IMG/VR virus record: IMGVR_UViG_3300032303_002587
Span: 33,153-97,152 of that record
Strand: one strand, 5' to 3'
Origin: a virus
Taxonomy: Duplodnaviria; Caudoviricetes
Length of the DNA stretch: 64,000 nucleotides
Part shown: piece after piece, positions 5,433-63,170 of the stretch
Position numbering within the stretch: the stretch's first letter is position 1
How the letters are laid out: each line of letters begins with the position of its first letter
Notes under the pieces: model-generated
Told to the model about the DNA's origin: nothing
Databases searched by the model: none
What the model saw: the letters and a program-made list of their open reading frames with translations, nothing else
Program-made: the position numbers and the translations under genes

Positions 5433-5433
<1 letters not shown>
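3874..5433 (-). CDS. Gly-rich, interrupted collagen-like fibre protein (paralogue of 5433-6782)
   Basis: G-X-Y runs and poly-Gly. Likely start is the GTG at 5433 overlapping the upstream TAG (TAGTG); the ORF track start is 5484. The N-terminus QVQDLGGICW...IFIDTSDI...AKFR aligns with [10 protein letters not shown]...ISIDTIDL...AQFR. Confidence 0.75.
4465..4740. repeat. Identical 114-bp direct repeat (4465-4578 and 4627-4740; period 162 nt = 54 aa)
   Basis: Base-by-base comparison shows two identical copies inside the collagen-like gene. Confidence 0.95.
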
Positions 5434-9363
<3,930 letters not shown>

Positions 9364-9365
9364 AA

Positions 9366-12020
9366 TTAATTGATTACAGCGATTATATAATTTGGAATAA
9401 TTGGACTTATTCCATTAGATATTACAGGTATTTTTATACCAGTAACTAAATTATTAATTGTATTTCTCCCAGTTATATAAAGATTACCAGACATAGCATA
9501 ATTATCATAAAAATTTCTTTTTTCTATTGATATATTTATTTTATTTATATTTGATGGTATATTAGATCCAGAAGTATATTTATTATTAGTTATATAATTA
9601 TTATTTTTAAAATTAATATTTCCAGTAGGAATTAAATTACCAGAAGAATCTGAATAACAATATCCAGTAATAATATTAAATGTACCAGTAAATGTTTTTT
9701 CATAAGCTATATCTGTTAAACCAGTTAATAATAAATTATAATTTCCACTTGCTATTCCTGTTGCAATTATTGAACTTACATATCCTGTGTGAATGGACCC
9801 ATTAATGCTTTGAGTAATATAGTCTTCATACGATAAAATACCATTTTCTACAAATCCAGAAACTTGACCAGTTATAGTGCTATAAGATATATCATCTAAA
9901 ATCATTGAAACTTTTTTAACTTCTCGTGATGAAATTATATATCTATTTCCATTTTCATTAAATGAACAAAAATCATTCGACATGCTTTCGTTACTTTCAG
10001 TTCCACTAAATTTTAAAGTTTTTTCCCAATTATTACCATATCCAGTATAAATCCAAGCTTTACCAGAGTTATTATTCATAACTGGACTTGTTAATAAGAT
10101 TTTATTTCCTATTGAATTTATTGCAAGCGCTCCACCGACTCCTTCTCCTCCAACAAATGTATTTGCTAAATTCCAATCTTGACCATTTCCTGTAAATAAA
10201 TAAGCATGACCCAGACTACCAGCGCCATAAGAACAATTTGCAATTATAGAATTTCCATCTCCATTTATACCAATTCTTATAGGAAATATTTTATTACTTC
10301 CAATTGGATAAATTTTTTTACATAAATCCCAATTATTTCCATTACCCGTGAATATATATGCTAGTCCAGAACTATAAAAATTTTCACCAATTACAATTAC
10401 ATTACCAGAATCATTTATAGCTATACTTTGACCAAAATAACCATTTGTATAACTCCCAGTTAATTTTTGCTTTAATGTATAATTTAAATTATTTCCAGTG
10501 AATATCCAAACCGCACCTTTACCGTTATTATCACCTGCCCCACCAACTAAAGCTATATTTCCAGATTTATTTAAAGCAACGCTCGTACCAAAGTATGAAT
10601 TATTTGCTCCAGTTAATTTTTGGTAATTCCAATTATTTCCAAATCCAGTATAAATATACGCTGCACCACTACCATTATCATCACTTCCAGCACCAATTAT
10701 CATTTTATTACCAATATCATTTAATGATAGTGATCTGCCAAAATTACTATTATTATCAAAACGAGATATTAATCCGACTTGATTCCAAGTGTTATTACGT
10801 CCACTAAAAATATAAACAACATTTTGCTGAAATACGCTTCCACCAATAGCAGCAATATTACCTTCGCTATTTAATTTAGGAGAATTACCAAAACCAAAAT
10901 TACTGCCTCTTAGCGTGTCTAGAGAATATCCTTCTCCAGAACCAAGGGTTGTAGCTTGATTAGTTAAAAAACCATTCAAATAAGTAAATTTATTTACATC
11001 AGAGTATATTTTTCCAGTTACAATACTATTATTCAATAAATTTATACCACTTCCTGTTGCTAAAAATGATTTAGATAGATATCCAGATCCATTTATAAAA
11101 CCACTTAATGTAGCATTAATTCCAGTACTTATACTTATCTCTTGTGAAAGTGTTCCTGTATATCCAGAAGCATATTCAAAAATAAATGATAAATTTTTAT
11201 CTATAGAATATGATCCAGTTTCATTTCCTAAACCAAAATCAACTCCTAAAACATAAGATTCTGTATTTACTTGGGCAGGTTCAATATAAAATGTTTCTGA
11301 AATTTTATTTATATCAAAATAATTTACATAACCAGTTGTAAGATATTGGCTATTTAATTTAAATGTCCCAGATATTTTACCAAAATTAGTATATAATCCA
11401 AAAATAAAATCACCAGTTTTATCTAAGTATAATTGTTTTGTTGTATCAAAATCTGGAGTTACTATAATATTATATTTTTGACCAGAGATATTTTGATTAA
11501 AAGAAGGAATTGCATTTATACTAAAGTTAGAATTAGCTGGAGAGATTATATCGCCGCTATAAATTTTAAAATTTAAATTTTGATTTCCGCTTATAAATCC
11601 AGTAATATTTCCTCTTACATAATAAAAATTATTAAAATCTAATTTATAATTTGGTCTATCCCCATTTATATAAAGCTCTGTTGTCCCTATGCATCCAGAT
11701 GTATTAAAATAGAATCTATCAAATTTTGTATAACTTTTTGAACTTATATTAGATAAATAATAATTATTAATATAATAGTCATATCCACTAAGATTTATAT
11801 TTCCAGATAATTTTATATTTTCATTTGTATTATAAGTATAGATTAATTTGTTTTCTGGATCAAATATTTTACCATTTGTAAATTTAAAATTAATATTTTG
11901 ATTAATGCCAGTAAAACCTAGATTACATAATCCATTAATATTATCTAAAGAGACATCAATAAGAAAAGAAATTCCAGTTTGCTCACTAATTGATAAAATA
12001 TTATTTCCAGAAAGGTTCAT
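9366..12020 (-). CDS. Tail/virion protein with a central FG-GAP-like beta-propeller
   Basis: Repeats of FGxSx(A/S)LNxxGNxxxxG...GAxYIFTG; lies in the tail-tip operon. Confidence 0.75.
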   Translation of the reverse strand: MNLSGNNILSISEQTGISFLIDVSLDNINGLCNLGFTGINQNINFKFTNGKIFDPENKLIYTYNTNENIKLSGNINLSGYDYYINNYYLSNISSKSYTKFDRFYFNTSGCIGTTELYINGDRPNYKLDFNNFYYVRGNITGFISGNQNLNFKIYSGDIISPANSNFSINAIPSFNQNISGQKYNIIVTPDFDTTKQLYLDKTGDFIFGLYTNFGKISGTFKLNSQYLTTGYVNYFDINKISETFYIEPAQVNTESYVLGVDFGLGNETGSYSIDKNLSFIFEYASGYTGTLSQEISISTGINATLSGFINGSGYLSKSFLATGSGINLLNNSIVTGKIYSDVNKFTYLNGFLTNQATTLGSGEGYSLDTLRGSNFGFGNSPKLNSEGNIAAIGGSVFQQNVVYIFSGRNNTWNQVGLISRFDNNSNFGRSLSLNDIGNKMIIGAGSDDNGSGAAYIYTGFGNNWNYQKLTGANNSYFGTSVALNKSGNIALVGGAGDNNGKGAVWIFTGNNLNYTLKQKLTGSYTNGYFGQSIAINDSGNVIVIGENFYSSGLAYIFTGNGNNWDLCKKIYPIGSNKIFPIRIGINGDGNSIIANCSYGAGSLGHAYLFTGNGQDWNLANTFVGGEGVGGALAINSIGNKILLTSPVMNNNSGKAWIYTGYGNNWEKTLKFSGTESNESMSNDFCSFNENGNRYIISSREVKKVSMILDDISYSTITGQVSGFVENGILSYEDYITQSINGSIHTGYVSSIIATGIASGNYNLLLTGLTDIAYEKTFTGTFNIITGYCYSDSSGNLIPTGNINFKNNNYITNNKYTSGSNIPSNINKINISIEKRNFYDNYAMSGNLYITGRNTINNLVTGIKIPVISNGISPIIPNYIIAVIN

Positions 12021-19898: not shown

Positions 19899-22800
19899 TT
19901 ATTTCTTAGTTGGCGGTAATCGTTGACCTCCTACGCTAACTATTCTTTCATTGAAGCTATTTGTTAGATCTTTTATTTTATTTTCTAAATCTGTTCTTAA
20001 TGTGGCTAATGAATCTTGTACTTGAGTTGTTATGTCTTGTTTAATGTTGTCTACAGAGCCACTATCTATAGTAAATTCAATTGGACCATTTGGTTGATTA
20101 ATATCTACTGCGACATTCCCCTTAAGAGATAAATCTGTATTTTTAAGTTCTACTTGACGCATTCCTGATGTTAAATCGCCCACGGCTTTAGAAGCATTTT
20201 GTAAATTTATTCCTGGTTGATTTGGCAAACCGTTAGTTTGATTTGGTTGTGTAAATGCACCAGTAAAAGTTTTTAAACTACTGGTAATTGTTGCTACATT
20301 TTTATTAATATCTAAGACTGCTCTTTGACTTTGTATTGCTTCTTCTACTTGTGTTTTAGCTATTTCATTTGATCTTGCGCCAATTTTATCATATTCTCCA
20401 GCCAAACCAAATTCTCCTTTACGAGTTAATAGTCTAGATATTGATGATGTTTGGAATTCTATATCTTTTGCTCTTCCAGCAATAGCTCTTTGTTTTAAAC
20501 TTCCTAAATCCATACCTTCTAAACTTCCACCAAACATTTTAACTGTATCTAATAATGTTCCAGCTGCTGCTCTACCACCAACAGGAGTTCCTATACCTTG
20601 TATATTATTAACTAAAGAATCTATATTACTATTAGATTGAGGATTTACGTAAGACTCTAAACCACCAAAAGCTTTAATATCTCTTTGTTTTTGTATACTA
20701 GCAGCTTGAATTTGATTATTGATTTTAGTTAATTCTGTTTGTTTGATTTGTTGGGCATTTAAATCTAATAAAGCTCTTTGATTATCACCTAAAATATTAT
20801 TAGCTTGAGTTTGAAGATCTATAGCTTTACTTCCATAAGCAGTTCCACCAAAAAATTGATTAAATGAATTAGTTATTTCTTGGCCAATTTGATCTGCTGA
20901 TTTTCCACTTGTTGCAAGTTGCCCTAAAACTGTTTGAAATTGATTTAATTTTTCTACGTCTACTTTTGGAGTTTGACCAGGAACATTTTCTTTTTTAAGA
21001 TCTAAGAAGGTTTTATAACCTTCTTGTAAAACATCTGAACGAGCTTTAGTTTCTTGATCTTTATATTTTTTAGCAAAATCTAATTGTTGTTTAGCTGTTT
21101 CGATTAAGTTTTGATATTCTCTAGCGCTTTGTGGGCCCATAGAGCTACGATTATATTCTAATAATCCACTAGCTCTTTGAAGTTGAACATCTTGAGTATT
21201 AAAAGCTAATTTATCCTTATACTCTTGTTGGATATCGCCAATTTGTATTAATCTTTGATAAAAATTATCTAATGCATCTTGTTTAGATTTTTCTATATCA
21301 ATCGATCTTTGTTTTGCTGCATTTTCTTTATTAATTAATTCGGCCTCTTTAGTTCTTTGCTCTGTTAATTTTTTAGCTTCTTCACCACCTATCACTTCTT
21401 CTAATACTTTAGTTAAAGTACTTTTTACTAAATCTTCTGCGGCTCTTCCACCTGCGCCTTCACCTTGTTTTGATAATCTTGTTATAGATTCTACTGCGCT
21501 TTCTTTAAAACCTAAAGAACGCAAAGCTTGAGGATCATAAGGAGCGTTTTTAGAAGTTTTAAATATATCCATATTACCCGAAGCTAGTTGTTGTTTTAAT
21601 TTTTCTCTAGCATCTGTATTCTCAAAACCAGATTTAGCAAAAACTTTTGCATATCTTTCTTGTTCGGCAAAACTTAAACTACTTGCATTGAGTCCACCTC
21701 CAATAGATTCTCTTGGATTTATTAATGGTTTCAATGAAAGGGATTCAAAAATTTTAGCAGTCTGAGTCCCAGTTCTTTTATTTAATATGTCTTCAAATCC
21801 AGCTGCTCCTTTATAGTAAGCTTCTTCATTCGCTAAATCAGATTGTATTTTAGACATTTGATCAAGCAGGTCTGTATAATTTGTAATAGAAACGAGTTGT
21901 TTTCTATAAGCGTCTGGAATTTGCCCTGCGGCGCTAATTAAATCTTGATTTAATTTTCCAATTGTTTCTGGTGATGTTTTTGGATCTTTTTGAGCATCTT
22001 GTAGCTTTTGTAAAATATCTGCATATTTTTGAGAACTATTAGAAAAATCAGTTAATGTTTGGCCAGATTCTTCAGCTTTTTCTGCTAACTTTGTAGATTT
22101 TTCTTTTAATAAATTAGCTATTGTTCCAAATGTTCCTGTCGTAGCTAGCAAAGCTGCACCAAAAACTCCAAATTTTCCAGGTATAATTTGCGCAGCAGTT
22201 CCAGCTAAACTTAAAGTAGAACTAAATCCTTCTATCGCTTCTGATAATTTTGGAGAATTTTTAGTTGCTTCTTGCAGTAATCCGCCAGCTAAAGATAAAG
22301 CTATAGAGGCTTGTATCAATCCTCCTTTATATTTTTGAATTGATTGTGGAAGCGCGTTATCATCAAAAAGAACTTTTACTTTTGAAGTAGAAGAGGCTAA
22401 AGTCTTTATTTTTTCTGTAGCAACCGCTGTTGAATCTTTTAGCGAAGAAAAATTCTTTGCAACTTGATCTATAATTTGAGATAGTTTTTGATCTAAATTT
22501 AAACTTGATTGATTTGGTAAAGTAGATGAATATGGTGTTCCATACGCATTTCTATCATTAAATGCGAAATTTGGTATATAACCTACATATGCACCAGCTC
22601 TTCTTGCTGCAGATCTAGAACTATATCTATTAACTCCTTGATTCAACCCTCTTGGTTCATCTTTTGTATTATAAACTCCAAGTCCAAGAGGATTACTATT
22701 CGAAGTTAAAGAAGATGAAGATCCAACTCTAATTGAAGATGCTGGTACACCAGCTGAAATTTCTCTTCCAATTGCTTCTTTTAATCCAGATAAATTAGGA

Positions 22801-25394
22801 GCTGATGCTTCGCCACCTAAATCCTCTTGTGAAAAAGATATTGGTTTTGATGATCCTGTTGATTTGATAACTCCAAAAGGTAAATTAATCATTTCTTTTC
22901 CAGATTCTAACCCTTGAATTAAAGCGGCTTTTAAACTTGGTGTTCTTTTTATTTTGCCTTTTATACTTGCTCCAGCTGTTGTAGCATTTAATTTGGCATC
23001 AAGATAAGGAAGAGCTTGCATAGCTGCTAATTGTCCTCCAAATAAAGATTGATTTACTTTATCACTAGCAAAATTACCTCCAATATAATCCCAAGTTCCA
23101 CTACCACCACCTTGTTTTTTATTTAAATCTAAATTTATTGCTGCGTTAATTGAAGATTCAAATAATCTTCCTAAAATTTGAGGATAAGCAGAAGTATCAG
23201 CTTGTAATTGATTTATTATTTCATCTGCAGAAGGTAATTTTTTTGTATTTGGTTTAATTAATTTCATAGCAATGCTTTGAATTGCTTTTGCTAATTCTTT
23301 ACCCGCTATTTGATCAAAATCGCTATTACCTATATTTAATATAGAAAAATCTTGTCCTGTTGCATATACTTTTTTTGCTGCTGGTTTTCTTGATGGCCCT
23401 AATTCTTTTTCTACTTCTGCTTTAGTAAAACGACTAGATAAAGCTGAACGATTAAATCTCTTAGAATCTATTGCTTGCCTTAAATTCATTCCTTCTGGAA
23501 TTTGAGCAAAATTTGGAACATAACCACTCCATGCGTAAGGATTAAATCCATGAGCTTTTTCAAAACTTTGTTTATAATTTTTTCCAGCTCGACTATCTTG
23601 TGGAGGCATAATTGCTGGTTGATTGAATCCATCAAATTTTTTTATTTTTTCTGCATCATTATAAGTTACCATTCCATAATTTGGAATAAATGTTTGTTTT
23701 ACTTTTCCTGGCATATATCCACCAGCTAAAGCTCCTGCAACTTCTTGATTAGCGTTAAAATTTGGAATGAATCCTGCAGATTTAGTTGGGATTCCTCTCA
23801 TAGGTCCAGTTTGAGCAACTCTAACTCCAGAAGATATTAAACTTTTAGATAAAGCATCTGCAACTGCAACTTGCCTTTGCATAGCAGCAGTTTCTTGTTC
23901 AATCAAAGTTAAAATTTGTTTATGTAAACTTGCTGTATTTACATTTCCACTATTAATTTGTTCTATAATTTGAGGATTTCTACCAATTAAATTTAAAATT
24001 TGACCTTGTAATGCTTGTTGTTCTGCGGCTTTAGCATTAAGACCAGTTAAACTTTTAAATGCGTCCGCTGAAAATGTAACTAATCTTTCAAAAATTTTAA
24101 ATAGTGCAGAAGCTGCTAATAATACTCCAGGTCCACCTAAGAATGACCCTATTCCTTTTAATAGTCCTTGTCCAATTCTTGACCCAATATCTTCACTTTC
24201 TGGTTGAAAATTTTCTAATGCAGTATTTAATCCACCTAATAAATTTTTTAATGTTGGTGCAATTGCTATATTACCAACTTGTGCCGCTAATTTTTGTAAA
24301 TTTGCTAAAGTTTTATTAATTGTCGCACTTAATGTTTGATTTAATTCTTCATTTCTAGCATTTGCTTCGTTGGTAGCTCCATTAGAAACATCTAAAGCTC
24401 TAGAATATATTGAGTATTGATTTCCTAAATCTGCCAAAGAAGCTTTTAATACGTTAATTTGGAATACGCCTCCAACTAATTCTGCGACTTGCGCTCTTTG
24501 TACTCCAGATAATTTACCATATACATTAGATAAACTATTTAAAATACTAATTAAAGGCAAGATATTGCCTTGCTGGTCTTTTGTTGCAACGCCAATTGCT
24601 TCTAATGCATCTAGAGTATCAGTCCTTTGAAGCCTTGTAAAAATAGTTTTAAATGAGTTACCAATTACAGCTCCACCTCTAGCTGTAGTTTGTTGAGCAG
24701 AAGTAACTAATGCAATAAGTTGATCTAAACTTACTCCTGCATCTTGAGCTGAACTACCAACTCTTCTTATAGCTTCTGCTAAATCTCCTGAACTAACTGC
24801 AAATCCAGCATCAACTGCTGCTAATTTATTAATTAATTCATTTGATGTTATACTAGTTTTATTAAATGAATTTAATGCTGCTGTAATCGATTCTACGCTA
24901 TCAACAACTCCCATTCCAGTTAATCTAGTTAAAATTAATGCATCACTAGTTCTTTTTAAAGTATCTTCTATACCTAAGCCTTGCCTAGAAAATTCTGTTG
25001 CAGCTGAAGCAACTTCAGAAAAACTTTGTCCAGTATTTTTAGCTATATCAAATAAACTATTACCAAAAGAAGCTAAATTTTTTGCACTAGCATTTAATAT
25101 AACATTAATATCTGTAAGAGATTTTTCAACATCTATAACGCTTTTAATTGTTTCTGAGAAAGCTTTTTGCACAGCAAAAATAGCACCTGCTGAAGCTCCG
25201 AATGCAATAACACGCGCATTAGATGCAGCTAATGATTTTTCAAATTCTCCTAATTGACCATTAATTTTACCTAATGGTTGAGAAAATCCTTTGCTATTTA
25301 AAACTAAAGCAGTATTAGCGACTTTTTCAATCTGCTTCTCTAGGGGCCTAGTATTCCCCAGTACATCAATAATGATATTATCGCCTTGCGCCAT
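19899..25394 (-). CDS. Tail tape measure protein (TP901-type core) with internal inserted domains
   Basis: 1831 aa, Ala/Gln/Ser-rich and helical. Core LFDIAKNTGQSFSEVASAATEFSRQG...AQQTTARGGAVIGNSFKTIFTRL. Follows the tail tube and chaperones. Confidence 0.93.
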   Translation of the reverse strand: MAQGDNIIIDVLGNTRPLEKQIEKVANTALVLNSKGFSQPLGKINGQLGEFEKSLAASNARVIAFGASAGAIFAVQKAFSETIKSVIDVEKSLTDINVILNASAKNLASFGNSLFDIAKNTGQSFSEVASAATEFSRQGLGIEDTLKRTSDALILTRLTGMGVVDSVESITAALNSFNKTSITSNELINKLAAVDAGFAVSSGDLAEAIRRVGSSAQDAGVSLDQLIALVTSAQQTTARGGAVIGNSFKTIFTRLQRTDTLDALEAIGVATKDQQGNILPLISILNSLSNVYGKLSGVQRAQVAELVGGVFQINVLKASLADLGNQYSIYSRALDVSNGATNEANARNEELNQTLSATINKTLANLQKLAAQVGNIAIAPTLKNLLGGLNTALENFQPESEDIGSRIGQGLLKGIGSFLGGPGVLLAASALFKIFERLVTFSADAFKSLTGLNAKAAEQQALQGQILNLIGRNPQIIEQINSGNVNTASLHKQILTLIEQETAAMQRQVAVADALSKSLISSGVRVAQTGPMRGIPTKSAGFIPNFNANQEVAGALAGGYMPGKVKQTFIPNYGMVTYNDAEKIKKFDGFNQPAIMPPQDSRAGKNYKQSFEKAHGFNPYAWSGYVPNFAQIPEGMNLRQAIDSKRFNRSALSSRFTKAEVEKELGPSRKPAAKKVYATGQDFSILNIGNSDFDQIAGKELAKAIQSIAMKLIKPNTKKLPSADEIINQLQADTSAYPQILGRLFESSINAAINLDLNKKQGGGSGTWDYIGGNFASDKVNQSLFGGQLAAMQALPYLDAKLNATTAGASIKGKIKRTPSLKAALIQGLESGKEMINLPFGVIKSTGSSKPISFSQEDLGGEASAPNLSGLKEAIGREISAGVPASSIRVGSSSSLTSNSNPLGLGVYNTKDEPRGLNQGVNRYSSRSAARRAGAYVGYIPNFAFNDRNAYGTPYSSTLPNQSSLNLDQKLSQIIDQVAKNFSSLKDSTAVATEKIKTLASSTSKVKVLFDDNALPQSIQKYKGGLIQASIALSLAGGLLQEATKNSPKLSEAIEGFSSTLSLAGTAAQIIPGKFGVFGAALLATTGTFGTIANLLKEKSTKLAEKAEESGQTLTDFSNSSQKYADILQKLQDAQKDPKTSPETIGKLNQDLISAAGQIPDAYRKQLVSITNYTDLLDQMSKIQSDLANEEAYYKGAAGFEDILNKRTGTQTAKIFESLSLKPLINPRESIGGGLNASSLSFAEQERYAKVFAKSGFENTDAREKLKQQLASGNMDIFKTSKNAPYDPQALRSLGFKESAVESITRLSKQGEGAGGRAAEDLVKSTLTKVLEEVIGGEEAKKLTEQRTKEAELINKENAAKQRSIDIEKSKQDALDNFYQRLIQIGDIQQEYKDKLAFNTQDVQLQRASGLLEYNRSSMGPQSAREYQNLIETAKQQLDFAKKYKDQETKARSDVLQEGYKTFLDLKKENVPGQTPKVDVEKLNQFQTVLGQLATSGKSADQIGQEITNSFNQFFGGTAYGSKAIDLQTQANNILGDNQRALLDLNAQQIKQTELTKINNQIQAASIQKQRDIKAFGGLESYVNPQSNSNIDSLVNNIQGIGTPVGGRAAAGTLLDTVKMFGGSLEGMDLGSLKQRAIAGRAKDIEFQTSSISRLLTRKGEFGLAGEYDKIGARSNEIAKTQVEEAIQSQRAVLDINKNVATITSSLKTFTGAFTQPNQTNGLPNQPGINLQNASKAVGDLTSGMRQVELKNTDLSLKGNVAVDINQPNGPIEFTIDSGSVDNIKQDITTQVQDSLATLRTDLENKIKDLTNSFNERIVSVGGQRLPPTKK

Positions 25395-25436: not shown

Positions 25437-26441
25437 TTATTTAACGCCGTGTATTTTTAGTATTTCTTCAAAAGAGAGATTTCCACCTTTTTTGTCAGCT
25501 TCTTTAACCAAATCTACCGCTTCATCTTTAGAATCCAACATACCTTTTAGCTCTTGTTTCGTAGCTCCTATATATGTCTTACCTGAGAACTCCCTTCCAG
25601 AATCTTTTTCTTTTTCTTTTGTAATTAAAGATCTACTCTCATACCATTCAACTAATTCATCTAAAGAGTTTATAGAAGATGGAGGAGTATCCCCAGTTTT
25701 TTCTAAATTATATTTATAACCTCTAGCTAATGTAAATAAATTAATTTGATTATAAGTCAATTTGCATAAAGGTTTCCCAAAAAATGTATAAGGATTATCC
25801 TCTGACAAGAAAAACATATTCATAAAAAAACTAGATACTGCAGTCTTTTTAAGGTTTTTAACTGAGAATAAACTATTAAAATTTTGATATAAACTAGCGT
25901 ATTTGATTAAATCTTCTATTTCTAGATTAAAAAAATCATCTTCTGAATCAAAATACTTATCTAAGTTTTCATTTTTACAAAATGTTAAATATATAAGATA
26001 TTCATTAGATTTTCTTGTTGCATATTCTTCTGCTGTTATACCTAAAAATTCTATCCTATCTTTTTCTATAGAAAATAGTTCTTCTTCTAGGATTTTTATT
26101 TTATTATCTATCTCTTTTTGTTGAGATGCAATAATTAATTTTTTCTTAGTATCTACGTTAAGATTAATCTCATCTCTAATTTTAATTCTTCTATTTTCTT
26201 TTTCTTTAGGCCAAATATTTTTTTCATGTAATAAATCTAACTTATCTTTTTCTTCTAGAATACCCATAGCTTTTGATTTATCGAAAAACTCAATATATTT
26301 TTCGTAAACATTAGCTAAATCAACTTCAGTTGTGTGCTTTAAATAAAAGGATTTATCTTCTAGTTTGTATATGGAATACTCGTTAATTATATCTTTATAA
26401 AGTTTTTTAACAAAATTTATATCTTTAAGTATTTCATTCAC
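25437..26441 (-). CDS. Putative tail assembly chaperone
   Basis: Charged helical protein between the tail tube and tape measure. Confidence 0.5.
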   Translation of the reverse strand: MNEILKDINFVKKLYKDIINEYSIYKLEDKSFYLKHTTEVDLANVYEKYIEFFDKSKAMGILEEKDKLDLLHEKNIWPKEKENRRIKIRDEINLNVDTKKKLIIASQQKEIDNKIKILEEELFSIEKDRIEFLGITAEEYATRKSNEYLIYLTFCKNENLDKYFDSEDDFFNLEIEDLIKYASLYQNFNSLFSVKNLKKTAVSSFFMNMFFLSEDNPYTFFGKPLCKLTYNQINLFTLARGYKYNLEKTGDTPPSSINSLDELVEWYESRSLITKEKEKDSGREFSGKTYIGATKQELKGMLDSKDEAVDLVKEADKKGGNLSFEEILKIHGVK

Positions 26442-26443
26442 TT

Positions 26444-27196
26444 TTATGAATCAAAAAATTCTTCTAAAGACTTAAACTCTTCTTCTGTGGAAGCTTTACC
26501 CATATACCATAAACTAATGAAATAAGCTAGCTTTTTAATTCCACCGCTTAGTGTAAGATCACCTTGATCTTCAATAAGATCGTAAGCTGTTAATTTATTT
26601 TCAAATGTCAAGCCTTTGAATATTGGAGAAAATGTTATTTTTTCATCATAAGAAACGTATGACAAATTAAGAACCCACCATAATATAACTTGATTCCTAG
26701 CTCTATTTTCTGCTGTTTGATCAAATACGCTTGATTGTTGTAATTCTAAATTAGCTAAGTCTTTCTTGATATTAAGAATTTCATTCAACAAGTCTTTCAT
26801 TTTGGTTTCTTGTTCTTCTTTTTCAAGTTTAGTTAAATTAGCTTGAACTTTTTCTAATTCGGTTTGCTTTACATATAATGTAACATATAGAGTAGCATAT
26901 CTTTGTTTTTCTGATTCGCTTAAAGCTCCACCATCATCTTGATATCTTTTAGCGATCAAAGACTTTGTTAACAATCCAAGTCTAATTCCTTCTGATACTT
27001 TAACGCCATAAAAAAGCTCTGCTTCTTCAAAAGTCTTTCTATCTGGACGAAGAATCCTAAAATAAACTGGAGATTTTTCTTTAACTTTTTTAAGTATTTT
27101 TACTTCTTCGCCTTTCTCGTTTTTTGAAATTTCTGGAACTTCTTTTTCTATTTCATTATCTATAGAAAATTCATAAATATATTTATCTGTTTTCAT
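26444..27196 (-). CDS. Putative tail assembly chaperone
   Basis: Position; acidic and coiled-coil composition. Confidence 0.5.
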   Translation of the reverse strand: MKTDKYIYEFSIDNEIEKEVPEISKNEKGEEVKILKKVKEKSPVYFRILRPDRKTFEEAELFYGVKVSEGIRLGLLTKSLIAKRYQDDGGALSESEKQRYATLYVTLYVKQTELEKVQANLTKLEKEEQETKMKDLLNEILNIKKDLANLELQQSSVFDQTAENRARNQVILWWVLNLSYVSYDEKITFSPIFKGLTFENKLTAYDLIEDQGDLTLSGGIKKLAYFISLWYMGKASTEEEFKSLEEFFDS

Positions 27197-36935: not shown

Positions 36936-39647
36936 TTATAATAATGAAAATACTGGAGTTGTTGTAATTTGAGGGCAATTATCAATAATATAAGGAGCTA
37001 ATTGCCAATTGTTTGATGCAAATTTATCACTATTATTATAACTATTTGTGAAATATACTTCATCTGAACTTCTTATGTCATAAGATCCATTCCCACCATA
37101 GCCATCTGGAGTTAGTGGAGTATTTATATAATAACTAAGACTATCTATTGGTCTATATCTAAAACTCGGTGCATCTAAATAAATCCATGTTCTATTAAAT
37201 ATTGAAAAATTACAGTTAGGGTTTGAATCAAACGGTAAATTATTAAGCACTAATGATTGACCAAAAGTTATAAAATTAATTTTTATTTCAGAAATAGTCA
37301 TCCCATTGCTCCAGCCTTTTTTGGGTAAAGCATCTGGGCCAGCTGTTGGATGAGAAGCGTAGTCTGTTCTACCATCACTATCATAGTAAAATCTCCATTT
37401 ATAGGGTAAAGTTCCATTTTTATTATCCCACCTTACATAAAAATCACAACTATTTTGACTCCAAACACCATTTTGAATTAAAACAAAATCATTTCCGCAG
37501 CCGCCAATTGTATAACCTAAATTTAATTTAATGCTATATGTATTTAATGATAAAGTTTCAAGAAAAAGTGACATTTTCCCACGACCAAGATTTTGTTTTG
37601 TAAAAGAAAATTTTCGTGGCGTAATATTTTGAAATGAAAAAGTTTGTAATTTTTTTTGATTTGAATCAATTAATAAAGCAGTTTTCCCTTGAAAAGTTGA
37701 ATCCCATCCAGTTGTATTTGAATATCTGTAAACATTTATATTAGTATTATTACCAAAAATACTATTAATCGCTGCTGGTAAATTTCCTAGAAAATATACT
37801 TTTCTTAAATTATCGCAATTACCAAATGCATTGCTTCCAATTGTCTGAACTTTCTTTGGTATAACAATTTGAGTTAAATTATTGCATTGGACAAATGTTC
37901 CACCTCCAAGATTCTGTACATTATCACCGATAGTTATATTTTTCAAATTGATGCAACCATTAAACATTCCATCTCCAAGAGTTTGTAAATTGTTGCCTAT
38001 GACTGCGTTTTGTAAACCAGTACAATAATAAAATGCAAGTGTACCAACGCTAGTAACACTGTCGGGAATAACTATATTTTTTATACCGCAACGATCAAAA
38101 GCTTGTTGCCCAAGAGTCGTGACACTATTAGGAATTGTAATTCCTGTTAGCTTTTCGCATTGGGCAAACGAAATATCTCCAATACTGGTTACAGTATTTG
38201 GAATATTAATGTTTGTTAATTTTTTACAATTATCGAAACAACCATATGGAATACTTTTAATACCATTACCTAGAATTACTGTATCTAGATTAGTACAACC
38301 CTTAAATGCGTCTTGACCAATGCCAGTTACGCTATTTGGAATATTTACGTTAGTTAAACCAGAACAATTTTGAAATGCAAAAGCGCCAATAGTCTTTACA
38401 TTATTTCCAATAGTGAGACTCAAAATGGAGCTTTTATTATTAAATGCATTTTCTGCAATACTTGTTGCATTAAGTCCAATAACAACTCCTGTTAATTGGG
38501 AATTTATAATAGGAGCAAAAACATTTGACGAAGAGCTTGTAGTTGCTGAATTATCAGCATAATAGAATGATGATAAATTAGGAGAGGTAATGGTATTTAT
38601 AGTAAGAGTATTTGAAAAAATTCCTGTACCGCCTAAGTTAACCCCACGTACACGAGCATAATAAGTAGTTAGAGCTGATAAATCTGAAACAGTTCGTTCA
38701 TTAACGTTAGCCGTTTGATTTTGAATTATATAAGAATTGAACGCTGGAGATTGCGAAACATCGACTCTATAACTAACGGCTTCAGGAACTGCATTCCAGT
38801 TTAAATAAAAACTATAGTGAGTTATATTAGAAGCTGATATTGTACCCATTGTAGGAGGTGCAGGAAGTAAAGTAGTAAATGTAATATTATTTGAAAAATT
38901 ACTACCACCTGTATTAATACTACTAACACGCGCATAATAAGTTGTAAGTGGAGATAAATTGTTAACAACTTGGCTAGTAGTATTAGTTGTATATTCTGTA
39001 TATGAATTAAAAGTAGGCGAAGTAGATACATCAAGTCTATAACTAGTAGCTCCAGCAACCGTTAACCAACTTGCATTAAAACTATTTGAAGTTACATTAG
39101 AATAGCTTAGTGTGCTAGGTGAAGGTGGCATTATAGTTATAGAAACAGGCAAATAAAAATTGCTAATAGCGCTCCATTGGTTTATTGGCACAGAATTTTT
39201 AGTTTGGTTTGCGGCTGTACAATTAGCTACTGTGGTTATCTGTTCTAAATAGCCTGGCGGATCATAACATGGATAATTATTACAACCAAATGGTGTGCCA
39301 TAAGTTAAATATGTAGTTTGTTTTATTTCCCATCTAGTTAATCCGCCATTCCATGCAAGGCATATCCCATTAACGGCGGTTACTCCCGTTAATCTACCCA
39401 TATAAAAATGTCCAGTAGAAAAAACTGTACCCCAATCCCAATTAGGATCTCCAGCTGCTACAGCAGTTGCTTTAAAAAGAGGAGTTTGATCAGCTAATGG
39501 TTGACCTACAGTTGAGCAAACTTGATTTAGAGCTCTACAACCTTTGTCCCCTTCCCCTTTTGCTGCAATTACTCCTTCAGTACCAAATTCGCCTTGTGAA
39601 CCTAATTTTATCAAAAGCCTAGAATTATCAGAAAATGGGAGGCTCAT
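36936..39647 (-). CDS. Fibronectin type III (x2) and BspA-type leucine-rich-repeat protein
   Basis: Two SFxxxWxxVxxAxSYRxDVS...LTTYYARV FN3 units; about 10 IPNSVTxIGxxAFxxCxxL repeats. Confidence 0.9.
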   Translation of the reverse strand: MSLPFSDNSRLLIKLGSQGEFGTEGVIAAKGEGDKGCRALNQVCSTVGQPLADQTPLFKATAVAAGDPNWDWGTVFSTGHFYMGRLTGVTAVNGICLAWNGGLTRWEIKQTTYLTYGTPFGCNNYPCYDPPGYLEQITTVANCTAANQTKNSVPINQWSAISNFYLPVSITIMPPSPSTLSYSNVTSNSFNASWLTVAGATSYRLDVSTSPTFNSYTEYTTNTTSQVVNNLSPLTTYYARVSSINTGGSNFSNNITFTTLLPAPPTMGTISASNITHYSFYLNWNAVPEAVSYRVDVSQSPAFNSYIIQNQTANVNERTVSDLSALTTYYARVRGVNLGGTGIFSNTLTINTITSPNLSSFYYADNSATTSSSSNVFAPIINSQLTGVVIGLNATSIAENAFNNKSSILSLTIGNNVKTIGAFAFQNCSGLTNVNIPNSVTGIGQDAFKGCTNLDTVILGNGIKSIPYGCFDNCKKLTNINIPNTVTSIGDISFAQCEKLTGITIPNSVTTLGQQAFDRCGIKNIVIPDSVTSVGTLAFYYCTGLQNAVIGNNLQTLGDGMFNGCINLKNITIGDNVQNLGGGTFVQCNNLTQIVIPKKVQTIGSNAFGNCDNLRKVYFLGNLPAAINSIFGNNTNINVYRYSNTTGWDSTFQGKTALLIDSNQKKLQTFSFQNITPRKFSFTKQNLGRGKMSLFLETLSLNTYSIKLNLGYTIGGCGNDFVLIQNGVWSQNSCDFYVRWDNKNGTLPYKWRFYYDSDGRTDYASHPTAGPDALPKKGWSNGMTISEIKINFITFGQSLVLNNLPFDSNPNCNFSIFNRTWIYLDAPSFRYRPIDSLSYYINTPLTPDGYGGNGSYDIRSSDEVYFTNSYNNSDKFASNNWQLAPYIIDNCPQITTTPVFSLL

Positions 39648-41046: not shown

Positions 41047-43095
41047 TTAATATTCAATACATGGAATAGGAGCTCTGGCTAAAGATGTAACAAATGAGCT
41101 CCCAATTGTAGCATTTAAATCTACGCCAGTGTCCCAAAAAACCGCAGTAGAATTTCCATTAAAAAGAGTTGTATTAAAGGTTGGTTCTCCAAAGATTTCT
41201 CCAAAAGTCTGAGCTGATGATGCCCTAAAGGTTGCAGCTGGTGATGATACTCCTGTGTTTGATGTGGCTATAATATATGGCCCCTTTTTTAGAGTTAAAG
41301 GTATATTTGCTTTGAAAATTCCTGTTGTAGTGCAATTAATAGATCCGCTGTGAAATAATTTAGCTCCTTGAAAACCATCCTGCCCAGAATATATACCATA
41401 TCTAATTGGAAATGAAGATAGTGCGGCGGCACCGCTACTAACTAATTCAATAGCTATTTGTGGATTTACAGCATCTTTTCTAATAAGAAATGGAAAATAT
41501 TGAATATTTTGATAACTTGGCGAAGAACTAGTGGTGCTTCCAACGCCCATAGGTCTATATCTTCTTACTGCAGAGCTTGCTGGAAAAATATCTGCTAAGG
41601 TTGGAATATTTGATGTTCCTAATAAATTAACGGTTCCATCTCTTATACTAATATCAACTCCAGAAAGATTCAAAGAATCAATACTATCTAAATTAATTCC
41701 TTCTGCAAATGTTTTGATTCCGCTAATAATTTGATCTCCAGTTGTATAAACTATTGTACTTGGTAATTGAGCAGCTTCTCCACTTAGTAGCACTCCAGTA
41801 TTATTAACCATCGGGCGCGATGAAAATGTTTTAATTCCACCGATAGTTTGATCTCCAGCAGTATAAACTCCGTTAGTAACAGTAGCAGCGTTACCATTAA
41901 TTGACCCAGCTATAGTGCTAGAAAATGTTTTCGTCCCAGCGATAGTTTGATTGCCATCTAATAAAACTGCTTTTCCACTTAATCCCGTGACAAGAGAAAC
42001 TGAAGCTATTTCATTTAAATATTCAATATCGTCATTTCTAGAAGCAATTCCAAAGACCCATTTATTTCCAGGAGAATCATAACCTAAAACTGCTCCGCTG
42101 TCATTTATTCCACTCAGCCCACTTCCAGTAATGAAGAAAATTCCGCCATCGGTTGCTGGACCGTGAACTCCACCTCCACCAGTAACATTAAGAAGCATGT
42201 AGTTACTTCCAACGTTTATACTGCTTGTATTGATGATAGATTGTATGCCCGTTACTGTTAAATTATTTATAGTTAAATTTCCTAAAAATGTTTTATTACC
42301 ACTTACATTTTGATTTCCCGTTAAAGAAACAACTTCATCAGATAAAGCTATATCTCTAAGAGAATAATCACCAGTATTTAATATTTGTGGTCTTCGATTT
42401 TGAAAATAATAACTATCTCCTTGAAAAACTAAACCATGATAATCAGGATCAAAAATTATTGATGTTTCTTTTGTATCATTAGCTAAAACAAATTTCATTC
42501 CTTGTGGCGTATCATCTAAGCCACTTATAACAAGATTATAATCATCATCTGAATAAATAGCGTTTTCAGGACCACCTATTTGTATTGCGCCTTGAAATTT
42601 TTTATTCCCATGAATAGTTTGATTTCCGTTTAACAATACTCCTTCACCAACTAGGACTATTCCAGAATAATTAACATACGGTCTTTTATTTAAATTTAAA
42701 ACTCCTGTTTTATAACTTACATTAATATAATCTCTAACTATTGTTCCGTCGTCATTGTACTTAGTTCCAAATAGAAATCTTGCCGCTTCACCAGAGTTAA
42801 ATTGAATAAATGCAAATTTGCTACTTGGAGCATTTTTTCCCATTTGAAAACTATGCTTATTATTTGTTAAAATAATATCTTTATTACCAAAATTCAAATT
42901 AATTATTGGAATAGTTTGTTCGTCGTTTCCAGAAACAAAAACTATTGGATCTATGAAATATTGTTCTATTCCACTTAAAACTAAAGCGGCTTTACTGCTT
43001 CCACTAATTTGATTAAAAGAAAAACTATTATATGGATAATTTGAAATTATATTACTATTCATTATGAACTCTATACATAAGGATGGGTTACGCAA
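41047..43095 (-). CDS. Fibre-like virion protein with G(N/D)QTIxGxKTF repeats (alternative start 43062)
   Basis: Five G(N/D)Qx(I/V)xGxKxF repeats typical of phage fibre shafts. Confidence 0.75.
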   Translation of the reverse strand: MRNPSLCIEFIMNSNIISNYPYNSFSFNQISGSSKAALVLSGIEQYFIDPIVFVSGNDEQTIPIINLNFGNKDIILTNNKHSFQMGKNAPSSKFAFIQFNSGEAARFLFGTKYNDDGTIVRDYINVSYKTGVLNLNKRPYVNYSGIVLVGEGVLLNGNQTIHGNKKFQGAIQIGGPENAIYSDDDYNLVISGLDDTPQGMKFVLANDTKETSIIFDPDYHGLVFQGDSYYFQNRRPQILNTGDYSLRDIALSDEVVSLTGNQNVSGNKTFLGNLTINNLTVTGIQSIINTSSINVGSNYMLLNVTGGGGVHGPATDGGIFFITGSGLSGINDSGAVLGYDSPGNKWVFGIASRNDDIEYLNEIASVSLVTGLSGKAVLLDGNQTIAGTKTFSSTIAGSINGNAATVTNGVYTAGDQTIGGIKTFSSRPMVNNTGVLLSGEAAQLPSTIVYTTGDQIISGIKTFAEGINLDSIDSLNLSGVDISIRDGTVNLLGTSNIPTLADIFPASSAVRRYRPMGVGSTTSSSPSYQNIQYFPFLIRKDAVNPQIAIELVSSGAAALSSFPIRYGIYSGQDGFQGAKLFHSGSINCTTTGIFKANIPLTLKKGPYIIATSNTGVSSPAATFRASSAQTFGEIFGEPTFNTTLFNGNSTAVFWDTGVDLNATIGSSFVTSLARAPIPCIEY

Positions 43096-46241: not shown

Positions 46242-48086
46242 TTATCCAAGCATAATAGGAGAAAAAGTTGCTGTTTGGGGCTCATCTTTCTGTAGCATAA
46301 TATCATTATAGCACTTTAGAGCCCAATTTGCTAACATAAATGCTGAATAATTGTCTTTTCTAGCTTTATTCGCAGAAGTGCTTCTTTTTAAATGTTGAGG
46401 CAAATCAAACGTTTGAGTTCCTCTGCTTGTGCTAGAATGCTCTACTATAGCGCATTGTTTTTTAGTTTGATATATAAAGTCATCTTGATTTTCTATAAAG
46501 TCCAATAGCATCCAATCTTTTTTATCTTCTGATTTCATTAAATCTATTGGCGCACCTTTATTAACAACTGAATTAAAAAATGATTCATTCGCTGCGGTTT
46601 TACTTGCAAACCATATTCTCTTATAATCAATACATGCTTGTAAGTACTCGTTAGCTTTACGAATAAATGTACTTGTGAATACTTGATTAAAGGCTATTCT
46701 TTTATCTTCGATATTGTATTTTCTTTTTGCGTTCTTAACCATTATATCATAATCTACGCCTTCTAGATCACTATCAAATTCAAAAGTTTTAATTTCTAGT
46801 TTTTGTTTTTTAAATAGTTCAGATTCATTACAAGCAGAAAGAAATACATCTGCTCCTGCGTTATCAAGAATCATGAATACAATATTAAAATTATTTAATA
46901 TATAATATAAATAAGCCACGTGATTTTTAAGGTTTCCTAAACCAGCATAAGTATGCACTAAAGTCCCATTTTTAGTTTCATCATCATATTCTAAAACTGC
47001 CATAGCAAAATAATCTGCATTTGGACTATCGCTCATATTAGGATCGATTCCTAAAATATATTTTTTATTAGGATCGCCTTTCAAAAGAGTGTGAGGACTT
47101 TCTCCAGTTTTTAATGTACATTCTTCCATCTTTTTTGCATTAAAATAACTATCACTACCGTCTGTAAATCGAGCACAGTATTCTCGAAGAAAACTGCTAT
47201 GACTAGATCCCCCAGCTTGAGCTTCTTCGATAATTGTTTTATCGATCATTTCTTCTGGAAGAGCTTCATAACTCATTTGACTAACAAAATAAGTCGCTTC
47301 AGTTTCCTCTTTAGAAGTAATTTTTTCTGACCATTCTAAATATGTTTTATAAAGATTTTCAAATGTATAACTTGCTGAAGATAGGGCTACCATTTTACTT
47401 GTATTTTCAAAAACAGCTCTATCTTCTTCTTTCATCAGGCCTTCTAGTATAAGTTTATCTTCCATTTCCCTGATCTGCATTCTTTCTTTTATGTTTTGTG
47501 GAGCTACTAAAAATGGCATTAATACGTTTTTAATAATTTCTTCGGGAAGCAAAAGAAACTCATCAAGCACAAGGATATTCGCGCGAAAACCTCGAATTTT
47601 TTCACCATTAAGAGGAATAGCGACAATACTACCACCATTAATTTGCCATTCAAATTGGTCATTTCTTTTTGCCTTTGCTCCGAAACATTGAGAGAGTAAT
47701 TCTGCACCTTTACTATCTACAATTTTTTCTAGATTATTAAAAATAAAACGCGCAGTTCTAAAGGTTGGGCCAGCAATAAGAATTTTTGTGTTAGGTTCAA
47801 ATACACATTGAAGAAAACAAAATACTGCTGCCATAAATGATTTACCGCAGCCACGACCAAAAACGCACATATTAAAGTTTCTATTCATTAGTGCTTTAAG
47901 ATGAATTTCTTGATAAGGAGCGAGCTTAACTCCACTAATTAATTCTGTTGTAAAACCAATATTAGCTCTTAAAAATTTAGCCAAACTAATTTTAGCTTCT
48001 TTATCGTTAAGATAACCCTTGAGTTGTGCTAATTCAGCATTAACATCTTTAACTTCTCTTAAGTATTTATCTGGACAATATATCAT
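46242..48086 (-). CDS. terL: Terminase large subunit
   Basis: Q motif LAPYQ, Walker A GRGCGKS, IRGFRAN, Walker B ILVLDE, ALSSAS, nuclease ILGIDP and RKDNYSA. Confidence 0.95.
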   Translation of the reverse strand: MIYCPDKYLREVKDVNAELAQLKGYLNDKEAKISLAKFLRANIGFTTELISGVKLAPYQEIHLKALMNRNFNMCVFGRGCGKSFMAAVFCFLQCVFEPNTKILIAGPTFRTARFIFNNLEKIVDSKGAELLSQCFGAKAKRNDQFEWQINGGSIVAIPLNGEKIRGFRANILVLDEFLLLPEEIIKNVLMPFLVAPQNIKERMQIREMEDKLILEGLMKEEDRAVFENTSKMVALSSASYTFENLYKTYLEWSEKITSKEETEATYFVSQMSYEALPEEMIDKTIIEEAQAGGSSHSSFLREYCARFTDGSDSYFNAKKMEECTLKTGESPHTLLKGDPNKKYILGIDPNMSDSPNADYFAMAVLEYDDETKNGTLVHTYAGLGNLKNHVAYLYYILNNFNIVFMILDNAGADVFLSACNESELFKKQKLEIKTFEFDSDLEGVDYDIMVKNAKRKYNIEDKRIAFNQVFTSTFIRKANEYLQACIDYKRIWFASKTAANESFFNSVVNKGAPIDLMKSEDKKDWMLLDFIENQDDFIYQTKKQCAIVEHSSTSRGTQTFDLPQHLKRSTSANKARKDNYSAFMLANWALKCYNDIMLQKDEPQTATFSPIMLG

Positions 48087-62368: not shown

Positions 62369-62788
62369 ATGAAACAAAACCTAAAAATCAGTTACCAAAC
62401 CTTCGGCGAAAACAATGCTTACCTTCTCGAAGGAAGCATCAAACAGATCAACCACTTCTTCAATAGTGTCTATAATTGGGAAGGAACTAACGGCAAGTTG
62501 CACGATATGGGCAACGGCAAAGCGTTCTACTTCTACGCTCACCCCGATGATGTGATGAAAGCTCTTACTAAGGTTGCGTTGCATAGCTTGGTCAATAAGA
62601 TCAACGCTAAGGGACGCAAGGGTGGACTGCTTGACCTTGCCAAGGCTAAGGCACAGAGCATTATAGATGAGATGACGCAGACCTGTTTCCTATGGGGTGC
62701 GACTAGCTCTGAAGGGTATAGCCTCGGCACTATCAGTGCAGAGAAGCCAAGTGATTACTGCGGTGCAATCAGTAGCGGAAGGGACTAA
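62369..62788 (+). CDS. Hypothetical early protein
   Basis: Clean ORF with an upstream promoter; higher GC. Confidence 0.75.
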   Translation: MKQNLKISYQTFGENNAYLLEGSIKQINHFFNSVYNWEGTNGKLHDMGNGKAFYFYAHPDDVMKALTKVALHSLVNKINAKGRKGGLLDLAKAKAQSIIDEMTQTCFLWGATSSEGYSLGTISAEKPSDYCGAISSGRD

Positions 62789-62792
62789 TAGT

Positions 62793-63170
62793 ATGACAGC
62801 AGAACTATTCGTAGTAGCATTAACAATCCTTGGCGAAGCGAGGGGCGAAACCTTCGAGGGTATGGCGGGTGTTGCTAGCGTCATACAGACACGCACGATA
62901 GAGCGTAAGCAAACACCTAGCCAAGTGTGCCTATCACCCAAGCAGTTCAGCTTCTGGAATGGTGGAGTAAGTGAAGCTACCAAGAGGAAACTACTGGCAA
63001 CAGCACAAGGCAAGAACGCTCTATACCTTGCTGATCTAGTCATCCATAAACAGATGCCAGACATCGTGAGGGGTGCAAACCATTACCACGCCGTCAGCGT
63101 CGCTCCTAAGTGGGCTAGGGACGCAAGGTTAGTGGCTACAATACGCAACCACAAGTTCTATAAGTTGTAA
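62793..63170 (+). CDS. Cell wall hydrolase, SleB/Hydrolase_2 family
   Basis: LTILGEARGE...VASVIQTR...QFSFWN...GANHYHA...HKFY. Start is the ATG at 62793, 4 nt after the previous stop. Confidence 0.88.
   Translation: MTAELFVVALTILGEARGETFEGMAGVASVIQTRTIERKQTPSQVCLSPKQFSFWNGGVSEATKRKLLATAQGKNALYLADLVIHKQMPDIVRGANHYHAVSVAPKWARDARLVATIRNHKFYKL

Follow-up and report, generated by a model that had tools for sequence, protein, structure and literature searches.

A hexapeptide-punctuated array of exchangeable domains in the tape measure proteins of a metagenomic tailed-phage clade

Background

Tape measure proteins (TMPs) are known as rulers of the phage tail and as helpers of injection, and recently also as contact points for host membrane factors and for defence. 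Some carry embedded domains, e.g. wall-hydrolase motifs in mycobacteriophages and peptidase or transglycosylase domains in staphylococcal phages and in pb2 of phage T5. In polymorphic toxins, a short peptide marks the border between the delivery part and the toxin tip (VENN in CdiA, PxxxxDPxGL in Rhs proteins). Internal segments of lambda-like TMPs contact inner-membrane proteins of the host (ManYZ) and are bound by the defence nuclease SNIPE, and segment-level differences between TMPs track the injection route and the sensitivity to defence (10.1101/2025.11.03.685801). The subject of this report is the TMP gene in a 64,000-nucleotide stretch of tailed-phage DNA (Duplodnaviria; Caudoviricetes), positions 33,153 to 97,152 of IMG/VR record IMGVR_UViG_3300032303_002587, referred to below as the window. 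The central, non-coiled part of this TMP is an array of small basic domains, A, M and B, punctuated by the hexapeptide G(F/Y)(I/V)PNF.

As in other TMPs with embedded domains, a long helical PF10145 ruler is interrupted by non-helical domains that are presumed to be active after ejection; unlike in those TMPs, the domains gave no match to known families, are separated by a hexapeptide and form an exchangeable array. Embedded domains as such were already known, and what is new here is the motif-punctuated array of exchangeable cassettes. The literature yielded no paper containing 'GFIPNF' and nothing on TMP cassette arrays. The likeness to polymorphic toxins lies in a short invariant peptide that serves as the recombination border of a hypervariable domain on a conserved delivery protein. 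Unlike in those toxins, the cassettes are internal, the motif stands on both sides, the carrier is a virion protein, and the M alleles examined share one residue signature. No cognate immunity gene or known toxin domain was identified, no systematic search for immunity genes having been made. As in lambda-like TMPs, a defined internal segment differs sharply between otherwise similar phages (10.1101/2025.11.03.685801), whereas the lambda-like variable region is about 100 amino acids (aa) of helical protein with neither motif punctuation nor discrete domains.

A hexapeptide at every domain border

The gene product scores 101.8 bits against PF10145, above the curated cut-off of 33.2 that marks the TP901/PF10145 type, and matches several tape-measure PHROGs (best E 2e-45). 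The original prediction, made from the sequence of the window, placed three copies of G(F/Y)(I/V)PNF in this protein, with ASAPNL as a degenerate copy and FIPNY as a further block delimiter, and all five peptides were found where it had put them (Table 1). A protein of the TMP's composition is expected to hold 7.8e-5 matches to G[FY][IV]PNF (Poisson probability of three or more, 8e-14), and even one match appeared in only 13 of 200,000 shuffles of the TMP. The core [FYL][IV]PN[FY] occurs nowhere outside the TMP gene in a six-frame translation of the whole 97-kb record. ASAPNL is indeed a decayed fourth copy, since relatives ~80-90% identical across the module read GF[IV]PNF at the homologous site. 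FIPNY fared otherwise. It lies inside unit A, where it is modelled as strands at a predicted local distance difference test score (pLDDT) of ~70-80, and other lineages read MNIPGxG at that place; it was rejected as a delimiter and as a fifth motif.

Each of the 215 fetched relatives of at least 1500 aa carries two to five copies of the motif, four in 165 of them and five in 25. One motif stands at every domain border, i.e. four motifs for three domains and five motifs for four. The hexapeptide, G-(F/Y)-(I/V)-P-N-(F/Y), is almost invariant and is part of an extended consensus, [AK]-[SA]-x-G-[FY]-[IV]-P-N-F-[AS]. Its 315 copies are encoded by 124 distinct 18-mers that use every synonymous codon and keep the amino acids fixed, so selection acts on the peptide: the hexapeptide is maintained at the protein level. 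In an AlphaFold model of aa 519-965 (pLDDT 58) the motifs fall in linkers at pLDDT below 50, between units at 70-80.

At motif position 2, Y or L tends to be common to sites 2 and 4, which close A and B on their C-terminal sides, and F is kept at sites 1 and 3 (phylogeny ignored), as in the site patterns GFIPNF/GLIPNF/GFVPNF/GLIPNF and GFIPNF/GYVPNF/GFIPNF/GYVPNF.

Table 1. Coordinates of the features discussed. Residue numbers refer to the TMP and positions to the window. The extra cassettes X1 to X4 occur in relatives.
Feature	Residues (aa)	Position in window	Strand	Remarks
Tail tape measure protein gene (TMP, P0001)		19899..25394	minus	open reading frame (ORF), 1831 aa; PF10145 and PHROG matches
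PhageMin_Tail (PF10145) region	118-305	24480..25043	minus	Pfam match, E 6e-29
Hydrophobic, transmembrane-like segment	414-442	24069..24155	minus	N-terminal to module; Kyte-Doolittle
Motif 1, GFIPNF	541-546	23757-23774	minus	G, P and N invariant across 68 relatives
Unit A	547-623	23526..23756	minus	small basic domain, isoelectric point (pI) 9.3
FIPNY	569-573	23676-23690	minus	internal to unit A
Motif 2, GYVPNF	624-629	23508-23525	minus	5' junction of M cassette
M cassette	630-862	22809..23507	minus	basic, hypervariable; M class 1
Conserved core of M	735-820	22935..23192	minus	
Core residue E746	746	23157-23159	minus	
Core residue D769	769	23088-23090	minus	
Core residue D799	799	22998-23000	minus	
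Core residue K801	801	22992-22994	minus	
Core residue K814	814	22953-22955	minus	
Decayed motif 3, ASAPNL	863-868	22791-22808	minus	3' junction of M cassette
Unit B	869-937	22584..22790	minus	paralogue of unit A by profile alignment, pI 10.5
Motif 4, GYIPNF	938-943	22566-22583	minus	
Region with hydrophobic, transmembrane-like segment	1003-1095	22110..22388	minus	C-terminal to module; Kyte-Doolittle
Extra cassette X1				161 aa; after A
Extra cassette X2				111-113 aa; between M and B
Extra cassette X3				~240 aa; after A
Extra cassette X4				121 aa; after A
Terminase large subunit		46242-48086		
Large adhesin-like virion proteins and one hydrolase		51298-56637, 36936-39647, 41047-43095, 5433-6782, 9366-12020, 62697-63170		

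The usual order of the module is motif, A (~82 aa), motif, M (~190-345 aa), motif, B (63-76 aa), motif. Units A and B are the best-conserved parts of the TMP, with a mean column identity of 63% for A across 68 relatives and of 65% for B. The original prediction had noted a residue pattern common to the two units of ~75-80 aa, and an hhalign alignment of A against B agrees (96.8% probability, E 2.9e-10); by this measure they are paralogues. Unit A is modelled as a helix, four strands and a helix at pLDDT ~70-80. The M block of the window has a pI of 9.5 and the whole module one of 9.7, and the median pI across relatives is 9.5 for A, 9.7 for M and 10.1 for B.

Pfam gave no consistent family when 68 A units were searched member by member, and nothing relevant for the whole module or for the C-terminal half of the TMP. 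The ESM Atlas gave no usable match for M or unit A. The profile of unit A aligned over 39 residues with the D1 domain of the hook protein FlgE (1wlg; GYKPGDL...G.V, E 0.39), probably by chance. The PDB profile matches of the TMP, M, A and the extra cassette X2, comprising coiled-coil noise, hemopexin-type lectins (E 0.002) and this FlgE alignment, were all treated as chance.

Exchange of cassettes at the motifs

Similar TMPs frequently carry dissimilar M blocks: M identity is below 40% in 819 of the 1295 TMP pairs whose N-termini are at least 80% identical. Relatives P0007 and P0022, for example, are 99% identical in the N-terminus, 90% in A and 89% in B, and 19% in M. In 30-aa windows their identity, 100-80% up to GYVPNF, is 10-30% from precisely that point and recovers at the G of the next GFIPNF. 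At the DNA level the window's TMP and relative P0024 (locus L105) are 80-100% identical to the end of motif 2, ~45% identical, the level of unrelated sequence, through M, and 82-87% identical from CCTAATTT of motif 3 onward; the break after motif 2 is visible in protein and DNA alike. The hexapeptide is the exact junction of domain-cassette exchange, to the residue and to the nucleotide, in agreement with its proposed part as a recombination boundary.

At a threshold of at least 50% identity, the M blocks of 120 four-motif relatives fall into 17 classes distributed over 16 backbone clusters, with six classes on one backbone cluster and one class found on four backbones. The backbone cluster of the window carries M classes 1 and 7. 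M thus reassorts among near-identical backbones as at least 17 divergent allele classes. A single BLAST cluster takes in 109 of the 112 M variants of the first match set. The M blocks from IMG/VR form several, and members of two of these, as well as the short M of two atypical lineages, carry the same residue signature, described below. Because every M class examined keeps this one signature, the exchanged M blocks are divergent alleles, and unrelated cargo in the M slot was rejected. The original prediction of swappable cargo between the motifs therefore holds in part. Homologous TMPs do vary in the number of motifs (2-5) and in the domains between them, with conserved flanks, and these domains are exchanged; M is not a slot for unrelated cargo in the classes examined. 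These genomes are AT-rich and the 18-nt codon strings of their motifs are frequently the same, so the motif probably doubles as a stretch of microhomology for exchange, a role that is probably a by-product of peptide conservation and not its cause.

Two further differences between TMPs lie outside the M cassette. A third break in similarity was seen at ~22416-22532 (aa ~955-993), where DNA identity to L105 is 15-37% right after motif 4 and recovers ~120 nt later. At 21447-21488 (aa ~1303-1316), P0022 and P0024, which carry another M class, have an insertion of ~35-45 aa (...DNSITPGQAVKAGFNTVGAIRDAS...) after ...RL(A/S)(K/Q)Q. The DNSITPGQAVKAGFNTVGAIRDAS insertion is absent from the window's TMP and from other carriers of class 1, and M may be coupled to this C-terminal patch of the TMP.

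Some lineages hold extra cassettes, X1 to X4, each bringing one more motif. Cassette X2, absent from the window, keeps 75-96% identity where the N, A, M, B and C parts of the TMPs compared share 17-83%. Between P0018 and P0211 the identity is 60% in N, 23% in A, 23% in M, 90% in X2, 31% in B and 17% in C. The DNA homology of X2 begins at the first codon of its 5' motif and ends right after its 3' motif, and the two flanking motif copies are near-identical direct repeats. Judged by these identities, X2 has spread recently between distant backbones. Leads to its function are weak and conflicting. It scores 17 bits against ParB_N (PF02195; gathering threshold 26.3, E 0.006) over 35 residues around DGNHRFELAQLAG, and E 0.56-1.8 against ParB chains in the PDB; its residues 10-69 bear a faint likeness to the N-terminal portion of an L,D-transpeptidase (8da2, E 0.025). 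No stand-alone homologue of X2 of 57-184 aa was found.

The M domain

In 67 diverse M blocks, where column identity averages 21%, five charged residues of the M core (E746, D769, D799, K801 and K814) reach at least 90% conservation. Position 799 is D or E, and the (D/E)xK variants DAK, DFK, DSK, EAK, EVK and DLK occur. The pI of M is 8.9-10.3 in 116 of 116 relatives measured. The description of M as a basic block with its residues in the order of PD-(D/E)XK nuclease motifs is thus upheld across the family, E...D...(D/E)xK being kept in the M classes examined and M being basic in every relative measured. The nuclease-like fold proposed along with it was not recovered by Pfam, PDB profiles, Foldseek or VIA-align on AlphaFold models. 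Pfam gave nothing at E<=10 for the window's M and no consistent family for 67 M members (one Csa1 match only, E 0.051), and a PDB profile search with M gave no nuclease. In Foldseek searches of the PDB and BFVD and in a wide VIA-align search the best Z was 4.9, from helices laid on helices only. A model of M alone (pLDDT 66) is mostly helical, places a helix within the ~30 residues that separate the D from the (D/E)xK, and is too weak to exclude PD-(D/E)XK. In common with that superfamily M has the ordered E, D and (D/E)xK, a later K and a basic pI; unlike it, M gives no profile or fold match and has a helical model.

That charged residues stay fixed while the rest of this invariably basic domain is hypervariable suggests a site for catalysis or ligand binding, and M is most likely an enzyme or a ligand-binding domain. 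From its residue pattern a nuclease is possible, though unlikely. A lysozyme-like M is possible as well, fitting the helical prediction and the TMP precedent as loosely as a nuclease does.

M-like domains were not convincingly found outside TMPs in the searches made. A phmmer search of M against 1.8 billion representatives gave 12 matches, ten of them proteins of 710-3611 aa, nine of which have motif pairs; the remaining two are short motif-less proteins of 127 and 192 aa. No convincing cellular homologue of M was found in 401 sampled genomes from the phylum of one Flavobacteriales metagenome-assembled genome (MAG). The sole match to the M profile outside that MAG's own phage-like contig was marginal (E 0.004) and contains two in-frame stops.

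Genomic setting and distribution

The A-M-B module is flanked on both sides by hydrophobic, transmembrane-like segments. By the Kyte-Doolittle scale, the upstream segment (aa ~412-447) is present in nine of nine diverse relatives checked, and a hydrophobic segment 5-250 aa past motif 4 in eight of nine. In the window's TMP the downstream segment is at aa 1075-1093; outside it, the region aa 1003-1095 is Gly/Ala-rich as judged by eye on the translation.

The source record is 97,152 bp long with a completeness rating of 65%, from which the whole genome would be about 150 kb. The TMP gene lies inside a one-directional block of large structural genes that takes in the terminase large-subunit gene and the genes of adhesin-like proteins; most of its neighbours have no Pfam or PHROG family match, and the gene order around it is kept in relatives. 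The genes at 25437-26441 and 26444-27196 occupy the chaperone position. The next gene downstream encodes a conserved 551-aa tail protein. The tail is probably non-contractile, since no sheath-sized gene lies upstream of the TMP gene in the window. The large adhesin-like virion proteins include a 1779-aa protein (PA14/GLEYA, Laminin_G_3), a 903-aa protein (BspA-type leucine-rich repeats, fn3), a BppL_N baseplate-like protein, a collagen-repeat protein and an FG-GAP protein; a Hydrolase_2 (SleB-type) cell-wall hydrolase is also encoded in the window. GC content ranges over ~0.25-0.41 across window positions 1-64000, where nearly all genes are on the minus strand and no tRNA genes were found.

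Relatives are numerous. A search with the module (aa 520-960) gave 519 and a search with the N-terminus (aa 1-500, E<=1e-20) gave at least 2791; in IMG/VR, 316 loci hold a relative. The module had no tblastn match in 50,697 records of cultured phages, whose similarity is limited to the N-terminus (query aa 37-427; 24-28% identity, TMPs mainly of Bacillus and Lactococcus phages). A very large clade of metagenomic TMPs has the array as a constant trait, and the cultured phages searched lack it. Contigs of relatives were binned into MAGs of Flavobacteriales/Flavobacteriaceae (5), Proteobacteria, Halobacteriovorax, Neomarinimicrobiota, Gammaproteobacteria and Cellvibrionales, which points weakly to Gram-negative hosts of aquatic habitats. 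Many longer relatives end in two copies of KDD(V/I)PAxLxxGE(Y/F)VxRKxAVxxYG, which the window's TMP lacks.

Interpretation

As a whole the locus is best explained, with a probability of roughly 0.55, as a motif-punctuated array of exchangeable TMP domains in which the motif is read by one partner and M faces the host or its defences. The hexapeptide would be a short linear motif, probably a Pro-Asn turn with two aromatic residues exposed, and its reader would be a single conserved partner. Candidates for the partner are a processing activity, a chaperone and the tail interior, and any domain flanked by motifs would then be handled alike. Since ejection of the TMP precedes that of the DNA, the array would act in the host envelope or cytoplasm at injection. 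By analogy with lambda-like TMPs, M may face a variable component of the host or its defences, and would diversify by meeting it at the injection step. Host factors take part in the injection of HK97, where PtsG and the periplasmic chaperone FkpA are involved and FkpA is needed (PMC5099701).

Several points weigh against this explanation. For A, M and B alike no known fold was matched and the models are weak, so 'enzyme' and 'linear motif' are drawn from conservation patterns only. Any single copy of the motif appears dispensable, since the third has decayed in this very phage. The high divergence of M could partly reflect relaxed constraint and not an arms race. The module is carried by no cultured phage searched, and the hint as to hosts comes only from MAG bins.

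The motif could instead be a cut site, cleaved autocatalytically at Asn-Phe or by a dedicated protease, so that A, M, B and any extra cassettes are freed from an injected-effector polyprotein with M as a PD-(D/E)XK nuclease acting on host DNA. The n+1 motifs for n domains, inserted cassettes included, would fit such a polyprotein, as would the invariant Asn, the conserved E...D...(D/E)xK order with its D/E exchange in an always basic M, and the DGNHRFELAQLAG stretch of X2 with its weak ParB_N match. One relative's TMP is also split in frame 26 aa before motif 1. In this relative (P0048, a 16-kb contig of JGI sample 3300050517) a 500-aa PhageMin_Tail ORF is followed by a 33-nt gap and a 1441-aa ORF; a stop codon, read-through or an error of sequencing may lie behind the split. 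Cuts at all sites would sever the tail ruler, however, and the phage persists with motif 3 lost. With the motif confined, within the 97-kb record, to this one protein, nothing points to a site cut by a general virion protease, and a scan of neighbouring genes brought up no protease family. M has no PD-(D/E)XK profile or fold match, a helix where a beta hairpin is expected between D and (D/E)xK, and often GG or GA before the (D/E)xK, unlike a beta strand; the ParB_N score of X2 is below gathering. The polyprotein is therefore rated unlikely. Its fuller version is more doubtful again, having the tape measure deliver exchangeable effectors, the motif cut, maybe by Asn-driven self-cleavage, to release a divergent, metal-dependent nuclease-like M and optional cassettes such as a ParB/Srx-like X2 into the host, and the cassettes swapped at the motif in an arms race with host defences; the virion would then carry a counterpart of polymorphic toxins. 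An M that is a lysozyme-like wall-degrading domain, with A/B or the X cassettes as wall-binding modules, is improbable. Its model has a mostly helical core with the invariant Glu in a helix and the invariant Asp 23 residues further on in a loop or strand, and such a core, Glu/Asp spacing and basic pI are reminiscent of lysozyme-like enzymes; X2 adds its faint L,D-transpeptidase resemblance. Against this, no Pfam, PDB or fold match to a lysozyme or transglycosylase family was obtained, the invariant Lys is atypical of such enzymes, and peptidoglycan is too uniform to call for 17 allele classes.

Structural punctuation, in which the motifs anchor the array in a negatively charged tube or clamp the TMP trimer while the domains are spacers and M is shaped by drift and recombination, is about as unlikely as the polyprotein. 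An acidic lumen of the tail tube would suit so basic a module; the residue bias between sites 2/4 and 1/3 suggests position-specific contacts, and the motif is confined to the TMP. Drift, though, leaves unexplained the invariant charged residues of M at ~20% identity, as spacers do the recent spread of X2 between distant backbones, and TMPs do not generally need the array, which no cultured-phage genome searched encodes. The motifs might also recruit a periplasmic chaperone or prolyl isomerase of the SurA or FkpA type that holds or refolds the domains after their passage through the narrow tube, a trimer of the 233-aa M being, from its size, probably too big to pass folded. GYIPNF has Y-I-P-N in common with WEYIPNV, a phage-display peptide that binds the P1 domain of SurA with a dissociation constant of 1-14 uM (PDB 2PV1; PMC11401910), and both the need of HK97 for FkpA (PMC5099701) and the binning of relatives' contigs into Gram-negative aquatic MAGs are in keeping with such docking. 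The resemblance was spotted after the fact, however, and the SurA consensus Ar-X-Ar-X-Pro does not fit the motif, which has F/Y at -2 to the Pro but S/A at -4 in 274 of 315 copies; nor does the consensus account for the invariant G and N. Docking is accordingly held to be a long shot. Conservation of the motif solely as a DNA recombination site is very improbable, for although the 18-nt motif codons delimit cassette homology and X2 lies between direct repeats of the motif that are near-identical, the spread of the 315 copies over 124 18-mers, with all synonymous codons and fixed amino acids, argues otherwise. The beta-signal of outer membrane proteins and the prepilin-peptidase site were set aside, their key positions not fitting.

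Significance

The array offers a concrete handle on what a phage delivers with its DNA and on which part of the TMP decides the success of injection. The motif itself is a simple search handle by which such cassettes can be found and classified. If the motif sites prove to be cleavage or docking sites, foreign domains could be loaded into phage tails.

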